64,000 bases of DNA. Source: Octopus vulgaris (lineage: Eukaryota). The notes beneath the pieces were generated by a model. It saw only the letters and a list, made by a program, of their open reading frames with translations, was not told the DNA's origin and ran no database searches. The stretch lies in assembly GCA_951406725.2 (NCBI GenBank), contig OX597822.1, positions 20,026,001 to 20,090,000 of the forward strand, read 5' to 3'. Every line of letters starts with the position of its first letter. The stretch's first letter is position 1. The position numbers and the translations under genes are program-made. This document shows positions 16,349 to 59,596 of the stretch, piece after piece.

Positions 16349-16448
16349 NNNNNNNNNNNNNNNNNNNNNNNNNNNNNNNNNNNNNNNNNNNNNNNNNNNN
16401 NNNNNNNNNNNNNNNNNNNNNNNNNNNNNNNNNNNNNNNNNNNNNNNN
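16349..16448. other. Assembly gap (100 N)
   Basis: Run of N following a (CTT)n microsatellite. Confidence 1.
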
Positions 16449-17606
16449 AATAGTGTTTTTTTGAGGTCTTGAAGGCGTATTTCTGGTGCATACCCTTTTA
16501 GCTAAACTGAAAGGGATATTTGTCTTGATGTGTTTTGGGTGGCATGAACTAAAGAGGAGGTATTGTTGTGAGTCTGTAGGTTTGTGGTAGATGTCTGTTA
16601 TGATTTGGTTCTCAGGTGTTTTTATAATTAGGAGATCAAGGAATGGGAGATGATGTTTGCTTAATTCCATAGTGAATTGGATGTTGGGATGTATGTTGTT
16701 TAGTGTGGTTTTGAATTCCAGGAGTTTTTCATAAGGTTCTTTCCATATGATGAAACAATCTTCCAAATACCTTTTCCAGTTTTCCAGGTGTGGAAGACAT
16801 GTCCAAATTTCTGGCGTGATATTTCATAGAGTGATAGTTCGAAGAAACCCATTATGAGGTTCGCAAGGACTGGTGCAGCCTTGGTACCCATCGCAATACC
16901 ACATTTTTGACGGTAGTGTGTGTCGTCGAAGAGAAAAAAATTGTTAGTCAGAATGAACTTGAGAGATTCTGTAATAAAAGTCTTGTTAATGCGGTCAGGG
17001 AATGTCTCTGGGTGTTTTTCTAGCCAGAAGTCAATAGCCTCTATACCATATTCATGTGGGATGTTGGTGTAGAGGTCGATGACATCAGAGGATACCAGGA
17101 GCGCCTCCTCGTTAACTGTTTTCGGGAGGTGTTTGAGCATGTCCAGATCATCCCTAATGAAACTTTTGATGTGAGTAAGGAAAGGTTTCAAAAGGATGTC
17201 TAGGAAATTACTCAGGCGGTGTGTTTTACAGGAGGTACCAGCCACGATGGGCCTTAGTTTTAGGTCCTCCGGTGCTTTGATGTTGATGTGGATGTCAGTG
17301 GAGAGTTTGCAGGCTTCGGTGATGTATTTGTTTTTATGGATTTTAGGAAGGCCATAAAAAAGGCTGGGCTTGCATTTGAAATTGGTGATATAATCCCTTT
17401 CTTTTTCTGTGAGTCCCTGACCGTGTTGGCGTATGAGTGTTGTGAGGTTTCTGATTGTTTTTTGCTGTTTATAGTTGTTAATAACCTCATAGAAAATGTT
17501 GTTGTTAAGCATGGAAAGTACTAGGTGTTTATAAAATTCCGTGTCCATAAGGACCACAGCGCTCCCTTTGTCAGCTTCTTTGATGGTAAGGTTTTTATCC
17601 TGTTGT
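16449..17606 (-). mobile_element. Penelope-like element reverse transcriptase, 5'-truncated and frameshifted, running into the gap
   Basis: Motifs IKEADKGSAVVLM, FYGLPKIHK, RPIV, DVIDLYTNIP, QKCGIAMGT, KRYLEDCFIIW (catalytic DD appears as ED), LPFLD and YHKPTDS...HP. Confidence 0.92.
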
Positions 17607-18606
17607 ATGTCACAGAACAAATAAATCTCCCGGAATACCGACAAATTCCACTGAGTGGCCACATAGACTCATGTACTAAAGACTTAAACCCCAAATTCTA
17701 TATATTCCCTTTCTACCAATGTAAAGACGGGATCACCACACAGGAGAGAATTAACAAGGAGAATCTCTTTATTGAAAAATTCCAAACACAACTTAATATG
17801 CAAACTCCTCGTTGATCAAACTTCCTTTTTCTACCTCATTCTTCATGGATGGACTAACACAAATATATAAGGATACCATGCATTCATCACTTCAAGCTAA
17901 AACTTATATTCTTTAAATATCATTTTTACTATTGTTGTTATTACTATCATTTTTATTATATATGATATAGCAATCTGAAATGTAATTGTCTATGCAAATT
18001 TATATAATTAGAAAATAATATAAATAAAGTGTTAAAATCTGAAAGTTAAGTTAACAAACAATTATATAAAAAAGACAATGCAAATGAAGCTAAAATGATA
18101 ATTTTATAATTTGGGGTTTATCAGCAGCCTTTATTGAAGAACTCAAAAGAGTTGTCTCCCCTTATTCACAACACAGGAACTGAAGAACCACAATTACTAC
18201 TACTTCCTGTTTTGCCAACATCCTAAATTAAACCAAACAACACATGGCCTTAATCCCATTGGATCCTAATACCTCAAGGTAATTTTTTCGTGAACAATCA
18301 TTAAACTCAAGATACACAACGAACTCACAATGTATCGGAGTACTTATTTTTTAATTTTTATACATATTTATTATTATTCTTTTGCAAAAAACAATGCAAC
18401 TTTTTTTCCCCTTTCTCATTTTTAAAAAACTTTTTTACCTAACTATTCTTGATAAGTCAAACTATGACGAAAACGGGTTTGAATAAATATATATTTATAT
18501 ATTTTATCAATTTCTCATTTCATTAAAATTTTCTTTCTGCATTTCACAATTTTTCCTTGCTTATCATTTCTCCACGTGCGGTCAACACAACCCCACCATT
18601 TATTGA

Positions 18607-19510: not shown

Positions 19511-19672
19511 ATTAGGGTATTATTGTTTATAACAATATCAGTGATTTAATAATTAAGGGTACTAACAAACAGAACTGGCATGCTAAGTATAGCAGTCAAA
19601 ATGACCAAACCGCAAGTTTTCACTAAAACACAAAGGTGAACACTAACAAATGAATAACAATCCTAAAATCGT

Positions 19673-19902
19673 AAAGTGTACTAGCCATCTCAATGTGGCT
19701 AGCCACTGGGAGTGGGTGTTACTGAAGCTTTTAGCCCCAGGAGATCATCGTCTCCAGCTGGCTTTAGACACACCTTCTGTGCCCTTCTGATATTCGCAAA
19801 GGGAGGTCATCCCCTCTCCAAAACCTAAGTGATACGCACGGACTATAGTTTCGAGGTTTTTGCCTCTCGTCAACGTACGGTAATCACCGGTTTTCGATTG
19901 GA
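19673..19902 (-). mobile_element. Hammerhead-containing short element, downstream half of the copy split by the Tx1 insertions
   Basis: Near-identical reverse complement of ~27225-27454. Confidence 0.9.
19835..19879 (-). ncRNA. Minimal type-I hammerhead ribozyme
   Basis: Minus strand reads CGTACG-TTGACGA-GAGG(CAAAAA)CCTC-GAAAC-TATA-GTC^CGTGCG. It has a palindromic stem III (ACTATAGT) and is a C3U variant. Confidence 0.85.
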
Positions 19903-21507
19903 TTTATCTTTATTATAGGCACTAAGGCCCGAATTAAGAGGGGACATTACAAAACAGGACATGGGGTACATATAATAAAAAAATCGAAAAATATGAAGTG
20001 AAATGAATATTTATAATGGATTAGATGGAACGGATTACGAGCCCCCCAAAACTCGCAGCTTCATTTAAAACACAGTTCTGCTATACTGGTCGTTCATCTG
20101 TCAGGTATTCTATCAACCTCTCCTGATCCACAATAGCTGGCAAAGTGTCATAACGTACATATAACCATTCACATACACTATAATCATCTCTCATTTTCTC
20201 CAATGTCTCTCTCTCCACGATTACCGCCTTCCACTGGTCATCATATATTTCTGGGTTCAACTTTACTCTAATTAAACCTTTCCTACCTGCCAACATCTTT
20301 TCCGTATTTTTGTCCTTGAAATATAACATTACCACTCTGTGTTTCTTTCCTTTGGGTCTTCCTCCTCTCTTACAACCTTTCAACTGCTCTTCCATTCTTC
20401 TGTCCCATTCTTCCTCTGCTGTTAATTTTGCTGGTTCACTTGCTTTTGCTTCGCACGTTCGGTCTTTTCTCTCGTCAGTAATATTGTTTTTCGCTTTTTT
20501 CTTCTTCTTTTTTTGTTCTTTGAGTAGTGATTCCACCCGCGTTCTTTTTCTATTTTCTTTCTCCAACTCTTCACCACTTTCCACATTATCTGTAGTGATG
20601 ATTTCCTCCTCCACACACGTATCTTTCCACTCCTTCGTTAAAGCCTCCAGTGCTATCGTTTTCTCCTGCACTTCTCCCAGCGGACACACATCCTTCATGT
20701 GGCCTCTTATTTTGCAATTGTAACATACTGGGAGTCTCCCCTCCACCACGACTCTAAGACGTGTCTCATCAGGGAACACCAACTTCTCCGGGATGTTGTA
20801 CAGGTCTGGCACGGTTATATGTACCAGAACCTGCACCGTATATCCCCACCACTTTACTTCTGTTGACCTTTCCACCTTCAACACCTCAACGCTTTCCTTG
20901 CAGTTGAAAACCACTGCCGCTAGAATCCTTTCTATATTAAGCTCCGGCGAAATCCTACCGATTCTTATTCTTACTGCCCTCTTTCCGCAGTAACCTGGTA
21001 ATAATGTCCATCTTTCAGATTTCAAAATTTTCGTGGCATTCCTTCTCGCTTCATTTTCATTTTTAAAATGGACAACCACTGTAGCGTATTTTCTTCCTCT
21101 GTTGTAAAAAGTAGGTTCTCCCTCAATTCCCTGCAGATATTTCTCTATTTCCTCCGTCTCTGCCACTTCTATTTTCTTTGAAGTCACGCTCCACGTTCTG
21201 TATGTTATCATACGTTTCTCCGCTTCTGTTGCTTCTTCTTCAGACTTTGTGACTCTCACACAATCACCTTCCTTCTTCAAGCTGTCGAAATATTTTTCCA
21301 AAGTCTCCTTCTCGACTACCACTTCTTCCAGCTCTAGTTCACTCGCAGTCAGGCTTCTGCCTGCCACTCCCGCATACGTCTGGGCTTGCATTTTCGAAAA
21401 ATCTCCAAAAAAATTTCACCACGTCTCAACGGCCTCCACCAACAAACTCGAACTCACAACCTCAACACACCAATAACGCAATCAAAAATTCCGACACAAA
21501 AAAAAAG
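19903..21507 (-). mobile_element. ORF1-only (HAL1-like) non-autonomous Tx1/L1-clade element, ~1.6 kb
   Basis: Bounded by the 15-bp repeat at 21508-21522 and 19888-19902. It has a T-rich 5' UTR, a single ORF and a ~180-bp 3' UTR ending ATAATAAAGATAAA, identical to the neighbouring full LINE's terminus. There is no ORF2. Confidence 0.85.
20081..21391 (-). CDS. Tx1/L1-clade ORF1-like nucleic-acid-binding protein (436 aa) with CCHC zinc knuckle
   Basis: Uninterrupted ORF. It has an N-terminal TYAGVAG and VVVEGRLPVCYNCKIRGHMKDVC (CX2CX4HX4C), and is homologous to VSVEGRRPRCFKCGQKGHVRSVC in the adjacent LINE. Confidence 0.85.
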   Translation of the reverse strand: MQAQTYAGVAGRSLTASELELEEVVVEKETLEKYFDSLKKEGDCVRVTKSEEEATEAEKRMITYRTWSVTSKKIEVAETEEIEKYLQGIEGEPTFYNRGRKYATVVVHFKNENEARRNATKILKSERWTLLPGYCGKRAVRIRIGRISPELNIERILAAVVFNCKESVEVLKVERSTEVKWWGYTVQVLVHITVPDLYNIPEKLVFPDETRLRVVVEGRLPVCYNCKIRGHMKDVCPLGEVQEKTIALEALTKEWKDTCVEEEIITTDNVESGEELEKENRKRTRVESLLKEQKKKKKKAKNNITDERKDRTCEAKASEPAKLTAEEEWDRRMEEQLKGCKRGGRPKGKKHRVVMLYFKDKNTEKMLAGRKGLIRVKLNPEIYDDQWKAVIVERETLEKMRDDYSVCEWLYVRYDTLPAIVDQERLIEYLTDERPV

Positions 21508-21819
21508 CGGTTTTCGATTGGATTTATCTTTATTATGATCAAGTGATCTAACATAGAATTGGGACATTACAGGACAAAACAATTACAAAAATGCTATGCG
21601 AGTTCGAATGAAATTATAAAAATTACAAAAATAAAATTTTATGTAACTCGAACGAAAACTTGGCTTACTTTTGCCTTTATCACGAGAACGTATGTTTTCT
21701 TTTTTTTATTATTATTTCTTTATTTTAAACAGTTATGTACAGTGAAAGGGAATGGGAGGTACAAGTTTCAATTTTGAACCCGGCAGCCTATAAATCCCAG
21801 CAGCTGATTTTTCCTTTCC

Positions 21820-24800
21820 TCGATGATTAAGCTGGGTTACTCTCACCCACCTTTCTCATCACATCCTTCCAACGTTCCATATACTCTTTCTGTGGCAGGC
21901 TCCTCTTCTCCAACCCCATCTTGCTCTTCAGATGATATCCGAAGTATTTTAACAAACCCGGGCCAGAGATAAAGGACCCTTTCACAAGACCTTCCAATCT
22001 AGTTCTCCATACACACTCTTTTCAATACTGCCACCGTAGAGTAAAAACAAGCCTTACCTTCCTTTGAAGAGTCCAGTTGGCGGTATCATCTTAATCATAG
22101 ATCCAGCCGACAGCTGTACTCGTCCCAGATGCGACAACACGTGTTCAACGTAACTTATCAAGCCTGACAGCTCCCGACATTGTACAAAAGCGTGTTGAAC
22201 GGTTTCATCGTCCAACCCACATCTTGGACACGTCGGTGGCACTGACATTCCGTGCCAGGATGACTTCTCGCGAACAGGTAATGCATTCCTATAGCACTGT
22301 CAGGTCAGGGATTTTTGGTAATTATCCAAATACCCCGACCTGAAAGTCTTCTTAAACAGGTTGGAGAGTTGATCTTCATCGAACCCCAAAGCCCTTCCTA
22401 GGACGTCGTCATTTCCTTCTACCAGCCCTTTATAGAACACCGAGGTGGTATTCCCGCTGCCGGCCTTGCCCATCTTGTGGATCAGCCAGAGTGGCTGTCG
22501 GCACTCCTTCTGCCATGAAGTCAGGTTACGTCCTTTAATGAGACCGGGTGTAAATCCCTCCATAGAGGCCGGTCGCGGGAAGGATTCCTCTGCCAGCGAA
22601 CTCCACACCTTATCATCCTCCAGGTAACACCAGGTGTCTCAGCCACAACGCATGCTTGCGCATCATTAGCCAAGGCATCCCCAGTCCACCCGTTAGCTGT
22701 TCCTGGCAACACACGGAGCGTCTCACAAGTGGCTTTCCTCCTTTCCACAAAAAGCGGAAAAGGAGTCGTTCCAATTTGTTTAACCACGAATCGGGGCAAG
22801 GCACGACGGTCAGGTGGTAGGTGACGACAGAGGCTATAAACAGCTGTGCCACCTCCGCCCTCCCTTTCAAGGAAAGATGCCTTCCGGACCACTTCCGTAC
22901 TATGGCATCCACCTTGCTCGTTACCTCGCTCCAATTCTTCTCCGTCTGGGAGTCTGGACCAAACCAGACTCTGAGCAATTTAACAGGACCATCCGTCCAG
23001 TGTCCAACAACACTGGACGGTATCGGCTTGTTCCTCCAGGTGCCGAGGCGCAAACCGATGGACTTGTCCCTGTTAACTTTTGCCCCTGCCACCGCTTCGT
23101 ATCTATGGAGAGCACCTGCTACCCGAGGTAGCTGTGTTCCGTTGGACACGATGAGGGTGACGTCATCCGCATAGGCAGAAATAGACTTACCGCATCCGAT
23201 TTCATTAGGGTTGCGTCCCAACTTCTCCAGCTTCCGCAGCAATGGCTCAAGAGCCAAAACATACAGGAGCGGGGACAAGGGGCACCCTTGACGAACTGAA
23301 CGCTTGATCGAAAACGGCTCCGTTAGGTAACCGTTTATCTGGACTGTGGACTTGATGCCGCTGTACATAGCTGAGATCCACCCGCAGAAGCCAGAGCCCA
23401 GCCCAGCCGCTTCGAGGACCGCCGCCAAGTACCGATGGTCTACCCGATCAAACGCTTTACTTTGGTCTAAATGGACCAATGCCCCTCCTTTGCCGTCTAA
23501 TTTCCCGACCCTATCTATAGTGTAGCGGAGAAGGTGAAGATTATCCTGGATCGACCTGCCTGGGATTGCACATGTCTGTGCCTTCCCGACAAGTTTCTCC
23601 ACGACAGCCGTCAGCCTTTTTGCTAACACCTTGGCCAAAATCTTAAACTTTACATTAAGTAGAGTTATGGGCCTATAATTACTAATACTGTCCCCCTTGC
23701 TCAGGTCTTTCTGGACAAGCGTCACAACTCCCCGACTCACAGAGCTGGGAATCCTCCCATTCTGTTGCCAGTTTGCATAGACGCTTGCCAGTATGTCCCC
23801 GAACAAGTCCGGCATACAACAATAAAATTCATAGGGCAGACCATCCAACCCCGACGACTTTTCCCCGGCGCACATAACCCCTCTTACCTCCGCGGGAGAG
23901 ATCGATCCTTCACAGCACTCCGCCTCACCTGCCGAGAGCCGAGGCCCACCAGCTAGGAAGCCCTTTAAGGTCTCCCTACGCTCGAGCGGACCACCGTCCC
24001 CAAACAGCCGTGCGAAATGCTGGTGAAGGACCTTCTGCATCTCCTCCTGTCCATAGATCTTGCGGTCCTGCTCGTCAGTTAAGGACATAATACAGGACTT
24101 TTTGCCCTTCTGACTCTCCTCACGATGGGCCCATCCAGCAACGTTAATACCTTCTCGTAACTTAGCTCTGACTCTACACCCCTCGTGCTTGGCGTTGAGG
24201 TGACGGTACAATACCGCTCTCGCTGCCAACACTCCGGATGCACAGCCAGATTCCATAGCCTCGTCTAAGTTCTTAACTAATTCGCCCTCTATTCTAGTCC
24301 TATCTAAACTTAGCGGCTTGCTAAATCTAATGGACTCCAAACAGATGGCTCTTTTGAGGGCGAGCCACCATCTATTATTAATTATGGTGCCACATAATGC
24401 CCTCTGTACTAATTCCTTAATCCGGGTACGGAAAGCTTCACAAGTCAAAATAGACTTGTTCATTTTCCAGTACTCGGAACCTTGTCTATGGCATTTATCT
24501 ACCTGTACCTCACACGTCACAAGTTTGTGATCTATGTAAGGCACAACAGAGAATTGTGGACAGCTAACACTATTCCTATCTCGTTCCTTAACAAATACTC
24601 TATCTATGTACGATCTGCGTGAGCCGTCGTTATTACTCCACGTCCACTGTGGAACGTTCGGCTCATCCAGTCGAAAACGGTTTACTAGATTAAAGCTCGC
24701 TAGTAGAGCCTTGAGGCCAGGATTCCCCTTCCTATCGCTCGAGCCTACACCATCCACCTGCGCATCGAGAATGGTGTTGAAATCCCCTACCAAGACTACC

Positions 24801-25194
24801 GTTTTGGACGTCACTAGAAAGTGCTCCAGTTCCCGAAAAAACCGGTCTGCCCACGTCCATTAGGAGCGTAGACAGCCACCAACCTGAAGGACTGCTTACT
24901 CACGTGCGTCACATCTAGGATAACCAGCCTACCTTCTGGGTCCAGAAAGACAGTACTTACCTGTAAGTCCAAGTTCTTCCTGAAAAGAACTGCCACGCCT
25001 GCACCTCCCTCCCGGCTAGGAGAAATAAATTTCTCGTAACCATTGAGAAGTGGTGAGAACGCTTGGGGTCCTTTCATCTTGGACTCGGTAACAATAGCTA
25101 CATCGATTCTATGTGAAATGAGGTCGTCCCGAAAACAAGCCTGTTTCCATTTCGACCCCATTCCACGCACATTTATACAACCTAACTTAATCAT
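21820..25194 (-). pseudogene. ORF2: AP endonuclease, reverse transcriptase and C-terminal zinc finger (frameshift ~24814, disruptions from ~22610)
   Basis: INVRG, VYAPN, GDFN, IDR, DHK (APE); SGLDGL, YRPITLLN, LDQSKAFDRV, VRQGCPLSP, YADD (RT); CPRC...ETVQHAFVQC. The L.L.GR...LF.FLW...GGLG motifs are typical of L1/Tx1. Confidence 0.93.
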
Positions 25195-25208
25195 CGAAAA
25201 AAAGAAAA

Positions 25209-26725
25209 TTATTTACTCACGGTTGCGAGAGGGAGCCTGACAGATTCCTTCTGCCTGTCTCCCCCCACACTCGCCGTTGCTGCTGGGCGTTTCACCGGCG
25301 TTGCCACCGGGCCCTGGGTTGGTGTGGCTGCCGGGCTGACGTATAATTTCCCAGTTGTCACCTTCTGGGTGACATCCTTACTGAAGCCGGCTTTTACGTG
25401 GTCTTGTAAGTTTTTTTCTTTCCATCCTTCTTCGCCGACCCTTGCATATCGCCACTCCGCTTCCTTTTCGGTCGCTTTGTAGCAACTGATCTGCGTACTT
25501 GCTTGCACAAATTTTACTACTCTCTCGTCCCTTGTGGTGTATGCTATACATTTTTCATTGGGTTTAAACCCTTTTACAGTTGGGGGGTGGGGTTTGTTAG
25601 AGTGCTGGCCTATAAATGTAGTATCGCCGGGGTGGGATTGGAGGATATTTTTAATTTGTTCGTCTGCGTTGTTTTTTTTTTTGTTACGGATGGGGAGTCA
25701 GGGGTGATGGATTTTTTTCTTTTGTTCGGCACGTTCGTGAATTCCATCTCTTCTTGTATATTTGTTTTTGTTGTATTAATTTCCTCCTTTCCTTTCTCAT
25801 TTTGCATTCCGTTCTTGTCTTCCTCCTTTTTAGAGTTCGACCTGTTTTTTTTTTTCCTCCTTGCTTTCGCCAGTCGTTACTTTGTTCTCCACTTTGCTGC
25901 TTTCTGCGTTCTTCACAGCGTTTTGAGGGGGGGGGGGGGCGTTGCCCGTATTATTTTTCTTTGTGCAAACGGAGCGAACGTGGCCCTTTTGCCCGCACTT
26001 AAAACATCTGGGCCTGCGTCCTTCCACCGAAACTCGTATGGAGTGCCCCTCCCCCACGAAGACTCTGTCTGGTAGGCTTTCCAGCGTCGCATTTTCCGCC
26101 TGGATAATCATCTCCAGCTGCTGGCCTCTCCAGTGTTTTGCTATTTTCCTCTTCATACTAAAAATTGTCAATTTTGATTCAACATCAAAAATGACCGCTG
26201 TTGCCGCCCACATCACGTCGTAGCCCCTTGGTATATCTTCCAGTGTCACTTTTGCTATTCTGCACCCCAAATATAAGGGTAGTAGTATTATGTTCTCGTT
26301 TTTCAACGTTTGCGTCGAAATTTGCCTTGCTTCTTCCGCCGCCTCGAAATGCGCCTCCACTGTAGCGCTTCTTGCACCTCGGTTGACATGACGAACTTTG
26401 CTTCATATTGGTGCCATACACTTTTCGACCATTTCGTTTTTTACGTCGGTCATTCGTTTTTCTTTTATATTGTACACCTTATAGGTGACCATTTTTTCCC
26501 TTATTGCCTCGGTACCAATCGTTTTTCTTCACCACTTTTTTGCACAAGCGGTCTGAACTTAAATAGTCTTTCCATTGACACCTCAATTTCTTCCACTTCG
26601 CCACCTACGGCGTCTGAAAAACTGGGTTTTGCCTGTGTTTCCGTTTGTTTAACAGTTGTTGTACTTTCTCCCATCTCGGGAAAGTCTTTTTTTGAACTTA
26701 AGTCTAATTTCATATTAGACAACAC
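25209..26725 (-). pseudogene. ORF1 (CCHC knuckle), frameshifted
   Basis: ORF pieces 26501-26725, 25830-26360 (CFKCGQKGHVRSVC), 25610-25807 and 25209-25508. At least one break lies near a homopolymer run. Confidence 0.85.
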
Positions 26726-27067
26726 AAACTTGTCACAAATGACAAGGGAATTTTTTTCAAAAATAACCTATACAGGTTAAGAGTTCACACAAAAAAAACA
26801 CACACACACACAGAAATATTTCTACACCGAAGGGCGAAAATTACTGGGTCAAAAACAGTTCAACAAGTATTATACGTGTAACACAACAAAGTAGACAAAC
26901 GGAAACGAACTCACACAACGATTTGCAGCAACAGAAAAATATTTGATATACTCCGAGGAAAAATTCAAAAAGCGGCGGTTTTCGATTGGAGAGACCTGTT
27001 TGCGAATATTTATTTAATGTTTTTCCCAGCAACCACTGTCACTGATTTCGAAAAACTGTCTGAAAGC

Positions 27068-27207
27068 ATTAATAAATCTCCGAACGAGATGTAAACAGTA
27101 ACCACTCGACAACATAAAGTGTACTAGCCATCTCAATGTGGCTAGCCACAGTGGGTGGGTGTTACTGAAGCTTTTAGCCCCAGGAGATCATCGTCTCCAG
27201 CTGGCTT
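27068..27207 (-). mobile_element. 3' 140 bp of the hammerhead-containing element, inverted relative to 27208-27500
   Basis: Reverse complement of ~27362-27500 with a few mismatches. Confidence 0.9.
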
Positions 27208-27500
27208 ATTCGCAAACAGGTCTCTCCAATCGAAAACCGGTGATTACCGTACGTTGACGAGAGGCAAAAACCTCGAAACTATAGTCCGTGCGTATCACTT
27301 AGGTTTTCGAGAGGGGATGACCTCCCATTGCGAATATCAGAAGGGCACAGAAAGTGTGTCTAAAGCCAGCTGGAGACGATGATCTCCTGGGGCTAAAAGC
27401 TTCAGTAACACCCACTCCCAGTGGCTAGCCACATTGAGATGGCTAGTATACTTTACGTTGTCGAGCGGTTACTGTTTACATCTCGTTCGGAGATTTATTA
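27208..27500 (+). mobile_element. Uninterrupted copy of the hammerhead-containing element (empty Tx1 target)
   Basis: ATTCGCAAACAGGTCTC-TCCAATCGAAAACCG-GTGATTACCG joins exactly the two flanks of the Tx1 block (26991-27007 and 19673-19887, minus strand). Confidence 0.9.
27248..27292 (+). ncRNA. Minimal type-I hammerhead ribozyme (predicted cleavage after 27286)
   Basis: CGTACG-TTGACGA-GAGG(CAAAAA)CCTC-GAAAC-TATA-GTC^CGTGCG. It sits at the tip of a long stem: 27230-27238 pairs with 27302-27310, and 27207-27215 with 27328-27336. Confidence 0.85.
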
Positions 27501-27676
27501 ATCCTAAAATCGTTTTTTATTTTGTATATTTTCATTTGTCTTGCTCATTTTTACATTTTGGCGTTTTGCTGAATTATTTTTCTTGAGAATACGCTCTTCG
27601 TGGTAATGGCGATTTGACGTCTATATTTAGCATATTAGGAGTCCACTTTAGTGGTCATTCCTCTCAATTTTGTATG

Positions 27677-33913: not shown

Positions 33914-34013
33914 AATAATAAATCTCTGAACGAGATGTAAACAGTAACTGCTCGACAACGTAAAGTATACTAGCCATCTCAACATGGCTAACCACTAAGG
34001 GTGGGTGTTACTG
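33914..34013 (-). mobile_element. Isolated, more diverged 3' fragment of the hammerhead-containing element
   Basis: AATAAATCTCTGAACGAGATGTAAACAGTAAC...GGGTGGGTGTTACTG matches ~27071-27167. Confidence 0.85.
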
Positions 34014-54094: not shown

Positions 54095-54850
54095 GTTCGG
54101 ATTGTCTTTACACAGGGGCCATCCATAATCCCGCCTTCACTGTGAACAGGAATTAATCTTCTCTCTTCGCTCCTTTGCGTCACATGGGCTCAACTCCCTT
54201 CCTCTCTTCATCTGACTCCCCTCCTCTCTTCTCTTCATTTGACACCTACCTCCTGTCTTCACTCCTGCTCCACTCCCCACACCCACAGATCCACCCACAC
54301 CCAACACCACTCCTACGCACATCACCCCATACCACACCAACCTATACACCCACACCACCACACGACATCACACCACCCCACACCACTCCACACACATTAG
54401 CACTGACCACTTCCCAGCACCCACAGCACACACCATCTTCTGCACACCCCCAGACCTTCATCCACATACCCACACATTACAGACACACAGTTACACACGC
54501 ACATCCACACATGTCAAAGTCATTAGCCCCTATCCACACACACACTTTCTCACATATGTACAGACACACACGCGTACCTTCGTTTTGGGATCACCAATAC
54601 TTTATTATCTCTCCTTCTTTCTACTTCTCTTTTCTTTCCAATCGGTCGCCATGCTTGACCGCTAAATCGATAAGATTTTTTCAATTCTCTCTCTCTGTTT
54701 ATTTTCTCTTATTCCTTTCTGTTGAAGAGCGTAGGCTCGAAACGTAAAAGACTTTCTCACTTTGCCGAGCGTCAAACTAATACACCTGTTTGTTGTTCAT
54801 ACACCTGTCTTCGTCTTTTGTTTTTCTATAAATTTCAACTATATATATAT
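54095..54850 (+). mobile_element. PLE-type 3' UTR/pLTR with hammerhead variant
   Basis: A C/A-rich tract is followed by CTTT-CTGTTGA-A-GAGC(GTAG)GCTC-GAAACGTA-AAAG (~54715-54750). It ends in (TA)n. Confidence 0.55.
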
Positions 54851-56880: not shown

Positions 56881-59596
56881 AACAATTGCAGCGTGGGAGG
56901 TGTTTATAAGCCATTTAAGAAACACACAAAAGCCGTTCGATTCACTCCAACATTTAAGTTTAATTTGTCAAAATATTTTCGTCGCTAAAATCCGCGACCT
57001 GTTCACTGACAAAGTCCGTGCTGCATCTAAGAAAGTAACAGTTAGTTCGTCATATATATGTATGTACGTATGTATGTGTGTATGTATGCATACATGTGTG
57101 TATGTATGTACATATTCATGTCCGCACATACGCCTGTGTATGCATGTATGTATGTATGTATGTATGTATGTATGTATGTATGTATATATGTATGTGTGTG
57201 TATAAGCACGCACATACACTCTATAAAACATAAAGTTATAAACCTGTAGCGATGGATGGATGTAGAGTGACCACTCATCACAACGCTATCAAATTTCAAC
57301 TCCCTACGGCCGAGGCTAGAAAGTGAATTTATGACGCTTGCTCACAAGAACTATACCCTAAAATCTATTATCAGATTTTTATCTCTATATCACAGAACTA
57401 ATGTTTTACTATTGTTCGTATGTATGTATGTATGTGCGTATGTATGTATGTGCGTATGTATGTATGTATGTATGTATGTATGTATGTATGTATGTATGTA
57501 TGTATGTATGTATGTATGTATGTACATACGTACGCATGTGCGTATGTATGTATACGCGCCCGTATGCATGTGCCCATGTATGTGTGTGTGTACATGTACG
57601 TGCGTATGTACGTGTGTATGCCCATACGTAGGTATGTATGTATGTTTGTATTCATGTGCTACGTATGTATGTGAGTGTCTAGGAGAATGGGCAGATGTGT
57701 CCGTGAGAGTGTGTACATGTGTATGTGTATGTGAACGTATGTCCGTGTACTGGCATGTGTCCGTCCAAGTTGTGTACATGACTGTTACTTAGCTGAAGGT
57801 TGTATACATATTTACATATATGTTTGTATAGACGCACACATATATATATATATATGTGTGTGGGTGTGTGTTTGTTCCTCTCATCGTCGTCTAACCGTGA
57901 ATGGGTACAACGCCTAGGTGCAACTGTTCGTATCAAACAACGTCTGCTCATACCGTTGTATATAACTGCACATACGCATTGCAACCTGTATGTAAGGACT
58001 ACAGGTGAAAGGGAGAGAGAGAGAGGGGTGGTTATAGAATAGTCCTTCTGAATGGGATCTGGATGTTATTCCATTCGGACTTTCGGTTGAGAGTAGGTTT
58101 GTATTCTTGTATACAAACAGCTTCTGTGACCTGTCTCAACATTGCATCGGTGGGATGTGTAGATAGGATGTTCAACTTAAGCTCCCTAAGGATCCCTTGT
58201 GGCAGTCTACAGCATGTTGGTAGAAGATGGAGTTTGGCTTCCTTTCAATGTAGTTGTCCATTGAAAGGAAGCCAAACTCCATCTTCTACCAACATGCTGT
58301 AGACTGCCACAAGGGATCCTTAGGGGAGCTTAAGTTGAACATCCTATCTACACATCCCACCGATGCAATGTTGAGACAGGTCACAGAAGCTGTTTGTATA
58401 CAAGAATACAAACCTACTCTCAACCGAAAGTCCGAATGGAATAACATCCAGATCCCATTCAGAAGGACTATTCTATAACCACCCTCTCTCTCTCTCCCTT
58501 TCACCTGTAGTCCTTACATACAGGTTGCAATGCGTATGTGCAGTTATATACAACGGTATGAGCAGACGTTGTTTGATACGAACAGTTGCACCTAGGCGTT
58601 GTACCCATTCACGGTTAGACGACGATGAGAGGAACAAACACACACCCACACACATATATATATATATATGTGTGCGTCTATACAAACATATATGTAAATA
58701 TGTATACAACCTTCAGCTAAGTAACAGTCATGTACACAACTTGGACGGACACATGCCAGTACACGGACATACGTTCACATACACATACACATGTACACAC
58801 TCTCACGGACACATCTGCCCATTCTCCTAGACACTCACATACATACGTAGCACATGAATACAAACATACATACATACCTACGTATGGGCATACACACGTA
58901 CATACGCACGTACATGTACACACACACATACATGGGCACATGCATACGGGCGCGTATACATACATACGCACATGCGTACGTATGTACATACATACATACA
59001 TACATACATACATACATACATACGCACATACATACATACGCACATACATACATACATACGAACAATAGTAAAACATTAGTTCTGTGATATAGAGATAAAA
59101 ATCTGATAATAGATTTTAGGGTATAGTTCTTGTGAGCAAGCGTCATAAATTCACTTTCTAGCCTCGGCCGTAGGGAGTTGAAATTTGATAGCGTTGTGAT
59201 GAGTGGTCACTCTACATCCATCCATCGCTACAGGTTTATAACTTTATGTTTTATAGAGTGTATGTGCGTGCTTATACACACACATACATATATACATACA
59301 TACATACATACATACATACATACATACATACATGCATACACAGGCGTATGTGCGGACATGAATATGTACATACATACACACATGTATGCATACATACACA
59401 CATACATACGTACATACATATATATGACGAACTAACTGTTACTTTCTTAGATGCAGCACGGACTTTGTCAGTGAACAGGTCGCGGATTTTAGCGACGAAA
59501 ATATTTTGACAAATTAAACTTAAATGTTGGAGTGAATCGAACGGCTTTTGTGTGTTTCTTAAATGGCTTATAAACACCTCCCACGCTGCAATTGTT
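56881..59596. repeat. 2.7-kb near-perfect palindrome made of two head-to-head PLE 3' ends
   Basis: Arms are 56881-58250 and 58259-59596 with the 8-nt spacer TAGTTGTC. The centre encodes QHAVDCH...RQVTEAVCI...LNRKSEW (GIY-YIG-like C-terminus). Only the right arm has a ~57-bp extension before (TA)n. Confidence 0.9.

Follow-up and report, generated by a model that had tools for sequence, protein, structure and literature searches.

The analysed window, a 64,000-nucleotide stretch of Octopus vulgaris DNA, contains between positions 19659 and 27513 a block that is a single insertion, flanked by a 14-bp target-site duplication (TSD), of a non-coding repeat family with a 355-nt period. Positions within the repeat are given as monomer (M) coordinates, in which M1–60 is the reverse complement of 27067–27008, M61–353 corresponds to 27208–27500, and a 2-nt junction completes the period of 355. 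The features of the block and of one related fragment are as follows.

19659–19672, no strand: left copy of the TSD, 14 bp; its last 3 nt (CGT) are common to the element
19670–19902, minus strand: TSD-proximal unit of the minus arm, M78–310, ending at the short preferred 3' site (S)
19835–19879, minus strand: second hammerhead copy, identical to the plus copy; predicted cut between 19841 and 19840
19888–19902, also 21508–21522 and 26976–26990, no strand: 15-bp Tx1 target duplication (M78–92), the 15-mer CGGTTTTCGATTGGA
19903–21507, minus strand: TxA, a 1.6-kb Tx1-like insert co-oriented with the minus arm; its one 444-aa frame weakly resembles the protein encoded in the 5' part of TxB
21523–26975, minus strand: TxB, a co-oriented 5.45-kb LINE with zinc knuckle, APE endonuclease and RT in broken frames; lies 11 nt behind the predicted start site
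26976–27067, minus strand: M1–92 of the minus arm, made up of the linker and the first part of the rod; M82, where transcription is predicted to begin, is at 26986 (ATCG)
27041–27046, minus strand: ATCAGT at −60 from M82, the motif as in U1/U2 upstream regions; sole copy in the block
27068–27207, minus strand: distal unit of the minus arm, M216–355; 4 of 95 common sites unlike both proximal units
27207–27502, plus strand: plus arm, M60–355, with the long preferred 3' site (T) as its end and no promoter motif
27208–27335, plus strand: 128-nt rod with the hammerhead at its tip
27248–27292, plus strand: minimal type I hammerhead with a U3·G8 core; its stem III is palindromic and the predicted cut follows 27286
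27458–27502, plus strand: ~45-nt "tail" between both preferred 3' ends, found at the right end of the block only
27500–27513, no strand: right copy of the TSD, 14 bp; its first 3 nt (AAT) are common to the element
33914–34013, minus strand: separate 100-bp tail fragment, M256–353, 92% identical, with the 10-bp direct repeat TAATTGAGTG on each side

The first-pass annotation had described a non-coding unit of ~293 bp with a TTGACGA core (27254–27260) and a palindromic stem III at the tip of a ~130-nt rod, and a minus strand on which a partial tandem copy, a linker and a near-full copy are followed by an inverted copy. Sequence comparison recovered all of these parts, with a rod of 128 nt. The minus arm reads M216–355 and then M1–310, broken at M78–92 by two inserts that are each bounded by the 15-mer, and its M78–310 unit (19902–19670) is 98.3% identical to the plus copy. 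The ~350-nt period proposed for the unit is 355 nt in many loci of the family, and in these the ~60-bp linker, whose place in the monomer had been posed as a question, joins the tail to the rod and is thus part of it. The flanking 14-mer AATCCTAAAATCGT occurs at 19659 and at 27500 and nowhere else in the window. The block has its short end on the left and its tail end on the right, with 3-nt microhomology at both; the CGT microhomology reported for the left end is therefore real, but that end is not truncated and instead coincides with a family-wide preferred 3' site, M307–314. Similarly, the fragment at 33914–34013 exists, not as a dispersed piece of the block but as a separate insertion with direct repeats of its own. 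The 293-bp unit folds with z = −5.6, and none of 200 shuffles was as good. Only 4 of 250 sites differ between the two proximal units, which indicates that the insertion is young. With one hammerhead per strand, the locus by itself has no pair of cuts from which a monomer could be freed.

Copy number, arm ends and target sites of the family

A family search over the 2.8-Gb assembly (~31 large contigs) returned 3188 first-look candidates, 40 of which were scored. Exact hammerhead 31-mers gave 164 matches for an older subfamily and 24 for the subfamily of the window, and the family comprises hundreds of copies. Arms were mapped in 66 loci: 29 from the genome search (own locus excluded), 28 of 30 loci taken from the matches of the older-subfamily 31-mer (two duplicates dropped) and 9 of the 24 found with that of the window's subfamily (the rest already included). 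The 107 arms of these loci end at M307–314 in 48 cases, at M351–M11 in 43 and elsewhere in 16, such that two sites ~47 nt apart account for 91 of them. The arms are set back-to-back in a layout of partial tandem plus inverted 5'-truncated copy. In 25 of the 34 two-armed loci the arms end at different preferred sites; two ends of the same kind never occur together, and in the other 9 loci one end is irregular. Thirty of the 107 arms are longer than one period, and six cross two cleavage sites; the arms, of up to ~2.8 units (L255), pass from the tail through the linker into the rod without intervening coding DNA. The longest stop-free frame in the 355-nt monomer is 58 codons, and its frames contain no RT plus GIY-YIG ORF. 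For the TSD analysis, 7 compound or Tx1-adjacent loci were dropped, and 27 of the remaining 59 lie in simple repeats that are uninformative for TSDs; AT-rich TSDs of 9–15 bp (19% GC) flank 23 of the 32 informative loci, compared with 0 of 59 shifted controls. One locus with two copies 5.6 kb apart (L257) was considered as a PLE and turned out to be a segmental duplication.

Insertions of Penelope-like elements (PLEs) are described as having a tandem/inverted layout in which just one of the ends bears a tail (PMC8557442), and in vitro the tail lies between two start sites of the RT (PMC11167929). The 355-nt period, the TSDs, the two fixed 3' ends and the rule of one end of each kind support a Penelope-type event in the octopus and bear out the earlier proposal of a retrozyme- or pLTR-like element inserted in one such event. 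It is quite probable, in our judgment, that the block is a young insertion of a 355-nt non-coding repeat, a non-autonomous PLE (retrozyme), which was copied by a borrowed Penelope-type enzyme into both ends of one staggered cut. We infer the type of the mobilising enzyme from the insertion footprint by itself.

The same footprint could be read in two other ways. The first-pass annotation named one that would undo its own proposal, a DNA MITE; 27068–27500 would then have terminal inverted repeats of 140 bp and TTAA as its TSD. The edges of this segment (TTAAT/ATTAA) and its inverted 140-bp arms suggest as much, but the length of the inverted part varies at every locus, no terminal inverted repeats are fixed, the outer ends differ from one another by the one-of-each rule (25 of 34, alike in none), and TTAA is the longest shared flank in just 1 of 59 loci whose TSDs, where informative, measure 9–15 bp. 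We reject the MITE, to which we assign practically no chance. The other takes the units for solo pLTRs, the 5'-truncated ends left by an autonomous PLE outside the loci compared, and not for an independent non-coding element. It gains some force from the abundance of intact PLEs in the genome, two families of which have, downstream of the ORF, a minimal hammerhead with U3·A8 and a palindromic stem III, and from the resemblance of Xenopus retrozymes to pLTRs reported in 10.64898/2026.07.22.740005. A profile of the monomer nevertheless found no pLTR match in 80 PLE and GIY-YIG loci, a small sample of thousands of candidates that apparently represents one clade; its two significant matches were sister retrozymes nearby. 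Together with the absence of coding DNA from arms of up to ~2.8 units and a longest frame of 58 codons, this makes solo pLTRs very unlikely.

The loci compared include a PLE fragment in the window (16700–17668) and its intact family, 20 further, mostly divergent PLE loci and 30 GIY-YIG loci. None of these loci has any sequence in common with the monomer, and the fragment and its family were rejected as the partner. A homologue search identified the family as the RT plus GIY-YIG type, and by its motifs we take the fragment to belong to the Neptune clade. The fragment occupies 16450–18200 on the minus strand, with an RT frame at 16700–17668 and an apparent inverted 3' piece upstream, and is cut by a run of 100 N at 16349–16448. 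Its family has many intact 753-aa frames, and the ORF is followed by a minimal hammerhead of the U3·A8 type.

Hammerhead motif and candidate promoter

In the plus copy, the hammerhead consists of the core at 27254–27260, stem II at 27261–27274, GAA, the palindrome ACTATAGT at 27278–27285 and C17 at 27286. The comparison with Rfam that had been proposed as a check gave no hammerhead: no ribozyme was among the 3 matches at E ≤ 10 in 26900–27600, and no hammerhead was among the matches listed for the window (150 of 189). G5, A6, A9, A13, A14, A15.1 and U16.1 are invariant in 17 hand-picked copies of the window family and sister families, and the structure taken from the window copy holds across copies with 89% pairing, compared with 21–42% in slid controls. 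Covariation, whose lack together with a lack of self-cleavage had been named as refuting the first proposal, is present. Two-sided changes occur at 19 of 27 pairs against 10.8 in shuffles, a value reached by 0 of 500 shuffles that is not to be read as a probability, the sequences being related.

Stem III and the core were counted in 56 copies that were not chosen by hammerhead pattern. In 48 of them stem III forms a perfect palindrome (ACTATAGT in 30, ACTGCAGT in 13 and ACTAGT in 5), and a one-step intermediate between these forms is seen in just 2 of the 56. Several findings speak against activity: the U3·G8 core of the window copy is common to 33 of the 56 copies, stem II starts from a C·A pair in the large older subfamily, and U3-A8 combined with G-C is limited to 8. 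U3·G8 would be expected to lower hammerhead activity; we found no paper on its effect. The minimum fold of a single copy is not the hammerhead (−12.2 versus −7.6 kcal/mol for the hammerhead), and the minimum of a two-copy cofold is a double hammerhead at −28.2 kcal/mol. The dimer model put forward for the minimal hammerheads of PLEs, which cut weakly in vitro (PMC4209133), fits this preference of two copies for the double hammerhead. In Xenopus, one of nine retrozyme dimers is reported to be cleaved (10.64898/2026.07.22.740005). We conclude that each unit has one type I hammerhead, with a core and three stems that covary and a non-consensus core, which is predicted to fold as a dimer.

One locus may record cleavage in vivo. 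At C16:20.78M (L271:3100–3165), the element stops exactly at the predicted cut after C17 and continues into a TxA-like element that lacks its first 46 nt. A search for the pattern with a purine directly after C17 gave four matches, three point changes and this one true junction. The junction, a single case, may be a relic of RNA that was cleaved and ligated; AGTC microhomology nearby means that an ordinary cause is possible, and the far end of the block was looked for and not found.

The linker contains AT[CT]AGT at −60 of M82. The same motif lies at −64 to −55 in 23 of 25 U1 and 24 of 30 U2 loci, which reduce to 7 distinct promoter types; its background rate is 22 of 6398 bins. In two sister retrozyme families the motif is found at −57 and −59, and in a third a variant of it lies at −55. 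M82 and U2 both start with ATCG. Among the 30 loci nearest to TxB, the LINE's 3' end adjoins the window family at M78–82 in 15, the same site followed by another insert in 3, sister hammerhead families in 5 and the first bases of U2 in 4, with 3 ambiguous. Eight arms without a Tx1 tail start at M79–85, four of them as palindromic junctions, and no arm starts at M130–150. An A-rich box that is present after U1/U2 was not seen in the monomer on inspection by eye. Given the motif at the U1/U2 distance, its presence in sister families, the insertion of Tx1 elements at M82 and the arms starting at M79–85, the linker is most likely an snRNA-type promoter with its start at M82, a reading based on a 6-bp motif at fixed distance. 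A proximal element ~60 nt upstream of the start is the arrangement of snRNA-type Pol II promoters.

Tx1-like inserts at the predicted start site

TxA and TxB, which we take to be Tx1 elements, each have an exact 15-bp target duplication, and the matching site in the plus arm is empty. The 444-aa frame of TxA has no Pfam match. Other blocks that bear Tx1 elements differ from this one in breakpoints, host subfamilies and order of inserts. Tx1 relatives are inserted both at M82 and at base 1 of U2; close relatives at the first base of U2 snRNA genes are found in L105, L107–L109, L154, L161, L162 and L173.

The first-pass annotation had left it open whether the Tx1 elements came later or travelled as cargo. 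The exact duplications, the empty site in the plus arm and the independent breakpoints of other blocks favor later arrival, and the Tx1 elements probably inserted after the block had formed. Divergence cannot order the events: private changes amount to 1.26% in TxB and 1.4% in TxA as against ~0.8% in each arm (4/250), and the LINE is thus not visibly younger than the block. That the inserts are no less diverged than the arms is what would be expected if they had already been in the template and had travelled as cargo in a 7.5-kb composite. The same TxB-TxA order at C1:68.35M is in keeping with such a composite, as are four sister-family loci with one common retrozyme-TxA junction, where cargo may occur. 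However, the TxA at C1 is 4.5% distant whereas another copy is 2.7% distant, and the duplication around each insert, the empty plus-arm site and the other breakpoints and host subfamilies of Tx1-bearing blocks likewise speak against cargo, which we consider unlikely at this locus.

With the Tx1 elements inserted at the minus-arm start site, the sole promoter motif of the block now faces the LINE, and for the retrozyme this locus is probably a dead end. The hammerhead lies 62 nt past the last Tx1 insert. TxA (19903–21507; also L259, L261 and L276–L295) represents a family of Tx1 derivatives that are 1.6 kb long, have a single frame and keep fixed ends. Of 20 TxA relatives, most reside in sister hammerhead families, several directly behind the −60 motif. 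At L277–L280, one junction between a sister retrozyme tail and a TxA-like element is common to all four loci and is in tandem in L279, and the retrozyme unit there may carry the LINE derivative as cargo.

Target-specific Tx1 LINEs are known from Tx1D (Tx1), U2 (Keno) and Mariner-N4 (Tx1-Mar), as described in PMC4494074. The octopus elements resemble them in using one fixed site in a multicopy element, in their tandem insertions separated by TSDs and in having relatives at U2, and differ from them in that the target is a hammerhead retrozyme, hit at its predicted start site. We found no open-access text that joins retrozymes with Tx1.

Template, proposed cycle and known systems

The 30 arms that exceed one period and the 6 that cross two cut sites imply that the templates are circles or uncut multimers. 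A single monomeric circle predicts identical units within an arm, and unlike units in the same arm argue against it: 4 of 18 same-arm pairs differ at 5–30 subfamily-diagnostic sites. Where three units overlap, as they do at 11 loci, 49 sites set the distal unit apart from the other two, against 30 and 23 sites that single out each of those, a modest excess (49 versus 30, p = 0.04) at sites that are not independent. In the window block the odd-site counts are 4 (distal), 0 and 1, and the rare variant T269 is in both proximal units and absent from the distal one. Hairpin conversion is contradicted by this pattern, since it would match the plus arm to the adjacent distal unit and the reverse is seen. 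By eye, subfamily switch points do not cluster at the cut site. These comparisons modestly favor a read-through multimer over a single circle as the template.

The same element and enzyme could also have worked from one monomeric RNA circle that was cut, ligated and copied round, and this alternative deserves to be taken seriously. It accounts for the long arms, and the rod, which reaches ~21 nt upstream of M82, is complete only in a circle or multimer. The circular monomer fold has z = −6.2 (0/60 shuffles), and two units at L134 are 0.9% apart and have 4 private variants in common, which fits a circle or a multimer. Circular RNAs have been demonstrated in mussel, coral and axolotl (PMC7229834). 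Even the unlike units could come from nested insertion, template switching or mixed circles. Against the circle, besides those units and T269, stand the eight arms that start at M79–85 as if a linear RNA had run off its 5' end (four being palindromic junctions) and the finding that hammerhead mutants still insert in vitro (PMC11167929). On balance we regard the circle as possible and the multimer as the better candidate.

With a multimeric template, the cycle might proceed as follows. The snRNA-type promoter of the linker would start transcription at M82 and read through tandem units; the minimal hammerhead would cut slowly, mainly as a dimer, such that uncut multimers persist. The enzyme would nick AT-rich DNA ~12 bp apart, and the two DNA ends would prime at two fixed sites flanking the ~47-nt tail of the same last unit. 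Both cDNAs, joined head to head, would give back-to-back arms with one tail, and copying beyond one unit would restore the promoter upstream of the start site. In the window, the two Tx1-like elements would then have entered the minus-arm start site, leaving the sole promoter motif to point into the LINE. It is tempting to speculate further, on a broader view that we ourselves find doubtful, that the retrozyme is a mobile snRNA promoter spread mainly as uncut linear multimers that a Penelope enzyme primes twice from one RNA, with a hammerhead that is kept weak and thereby spares the templates. In turn, a Tx1 lineage would parasitise the retrozyme, taking the promoter at base +1 and the downstream hammerhead as RNA end, and the C16:20.78M chimera may be a cleavage/ligation fossil.

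Retrozymes, their circles and the PLE hypothesis are already in print (PMC7229834; 10.64898/2026.07.22.740005). Units of metazoan non-LTR retrozymes measure 350–390 bp in mussel and 330/350 bp in axolotl (Cervera and de la Pena 2020, PMC7229834). The octopus family resembles them in its non-coding 355-nt tandem unit, which lies within the 150–450 bp set for such elements and extends to ~2.8 units per arm, in its one type I hammerhead per unit, its highly paired fold, its TSDs well above 4 bp (9–15 bp in 23 of 32 informative loci) and the presence of PLEs in the genome. Two consecutive complete hammerheads occur in the family (6 of 107 arms), not at the window locus. Unlike the metazoan retrozymes, the octopus family mostly forms 1–2 units in back-to-back arms and not long arrays, has a non-consensus core and is known from DNA alone; the available text of PMC7229834 mentions neither an snRNA-type promoter motif nor targeting by Tx1. 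Newt satellite 2 is likewise a tandem repeat with an snRNA-type promoter and a hammerhead (the latter in PMC7229834); its promoter was demonstrated by experiment (Coats et al. 1994, as cited in PMC2220036), whereas that of the octopus element is predicted from a motif.

With PLEs and pLTRs (PMC8557442; Anolis Poseidon in vitro, PMC11167929; PMC4209133) the family has in common the partial tandem plus inverted 5'-truncated copy, the AT-rich targets, a one-sided tail between two start sites and a minimal hammerhead with palindromic stem III. In contrast to PLEs, the octopus unit is without an ORF, its tail is ~47 nt versus 30–40 bp in print, and no homologous autonomous family was found among the 80 loci. 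Li, Clavereau and Pollet (2026, 10.64898/2026.07.22.740005) proposed that retrozymes are non-autonomous PLEs from co-occurrence and pLTR homology, mostly in vertebrates; we arrive at the same mobilising machinery from the insertion footprint, without pLTR homology. No earlier description of the 355-nt family was found in open-access text; Repbase or paper supplements may list one. New here is a countable footprint for the retrozyme cycle, in which two fixed start sites are each used once per insertion. Subfamily-typed units within one arm make circle versus multimer templates testable from DNA alone, and the family further supplies a candidate promoter, a LINE whose position pinpoints the start site to a single base, and a compact substrate for in vitro work on PLEs.

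A second retrozyme family with a 364-nt period is present at L080:1293–1913 and L114. It has a CCGAUGA core, the motif at −57 and, near the tail, a similar GAGATTTA hairpin; a 73% fragment of this family lies in the window at 54340–54489. The window also contains, at 56881–59596, a large nested palindrome with arms of 671, 583 and 161 nt (98–100% identical) that is largely microsatellite.
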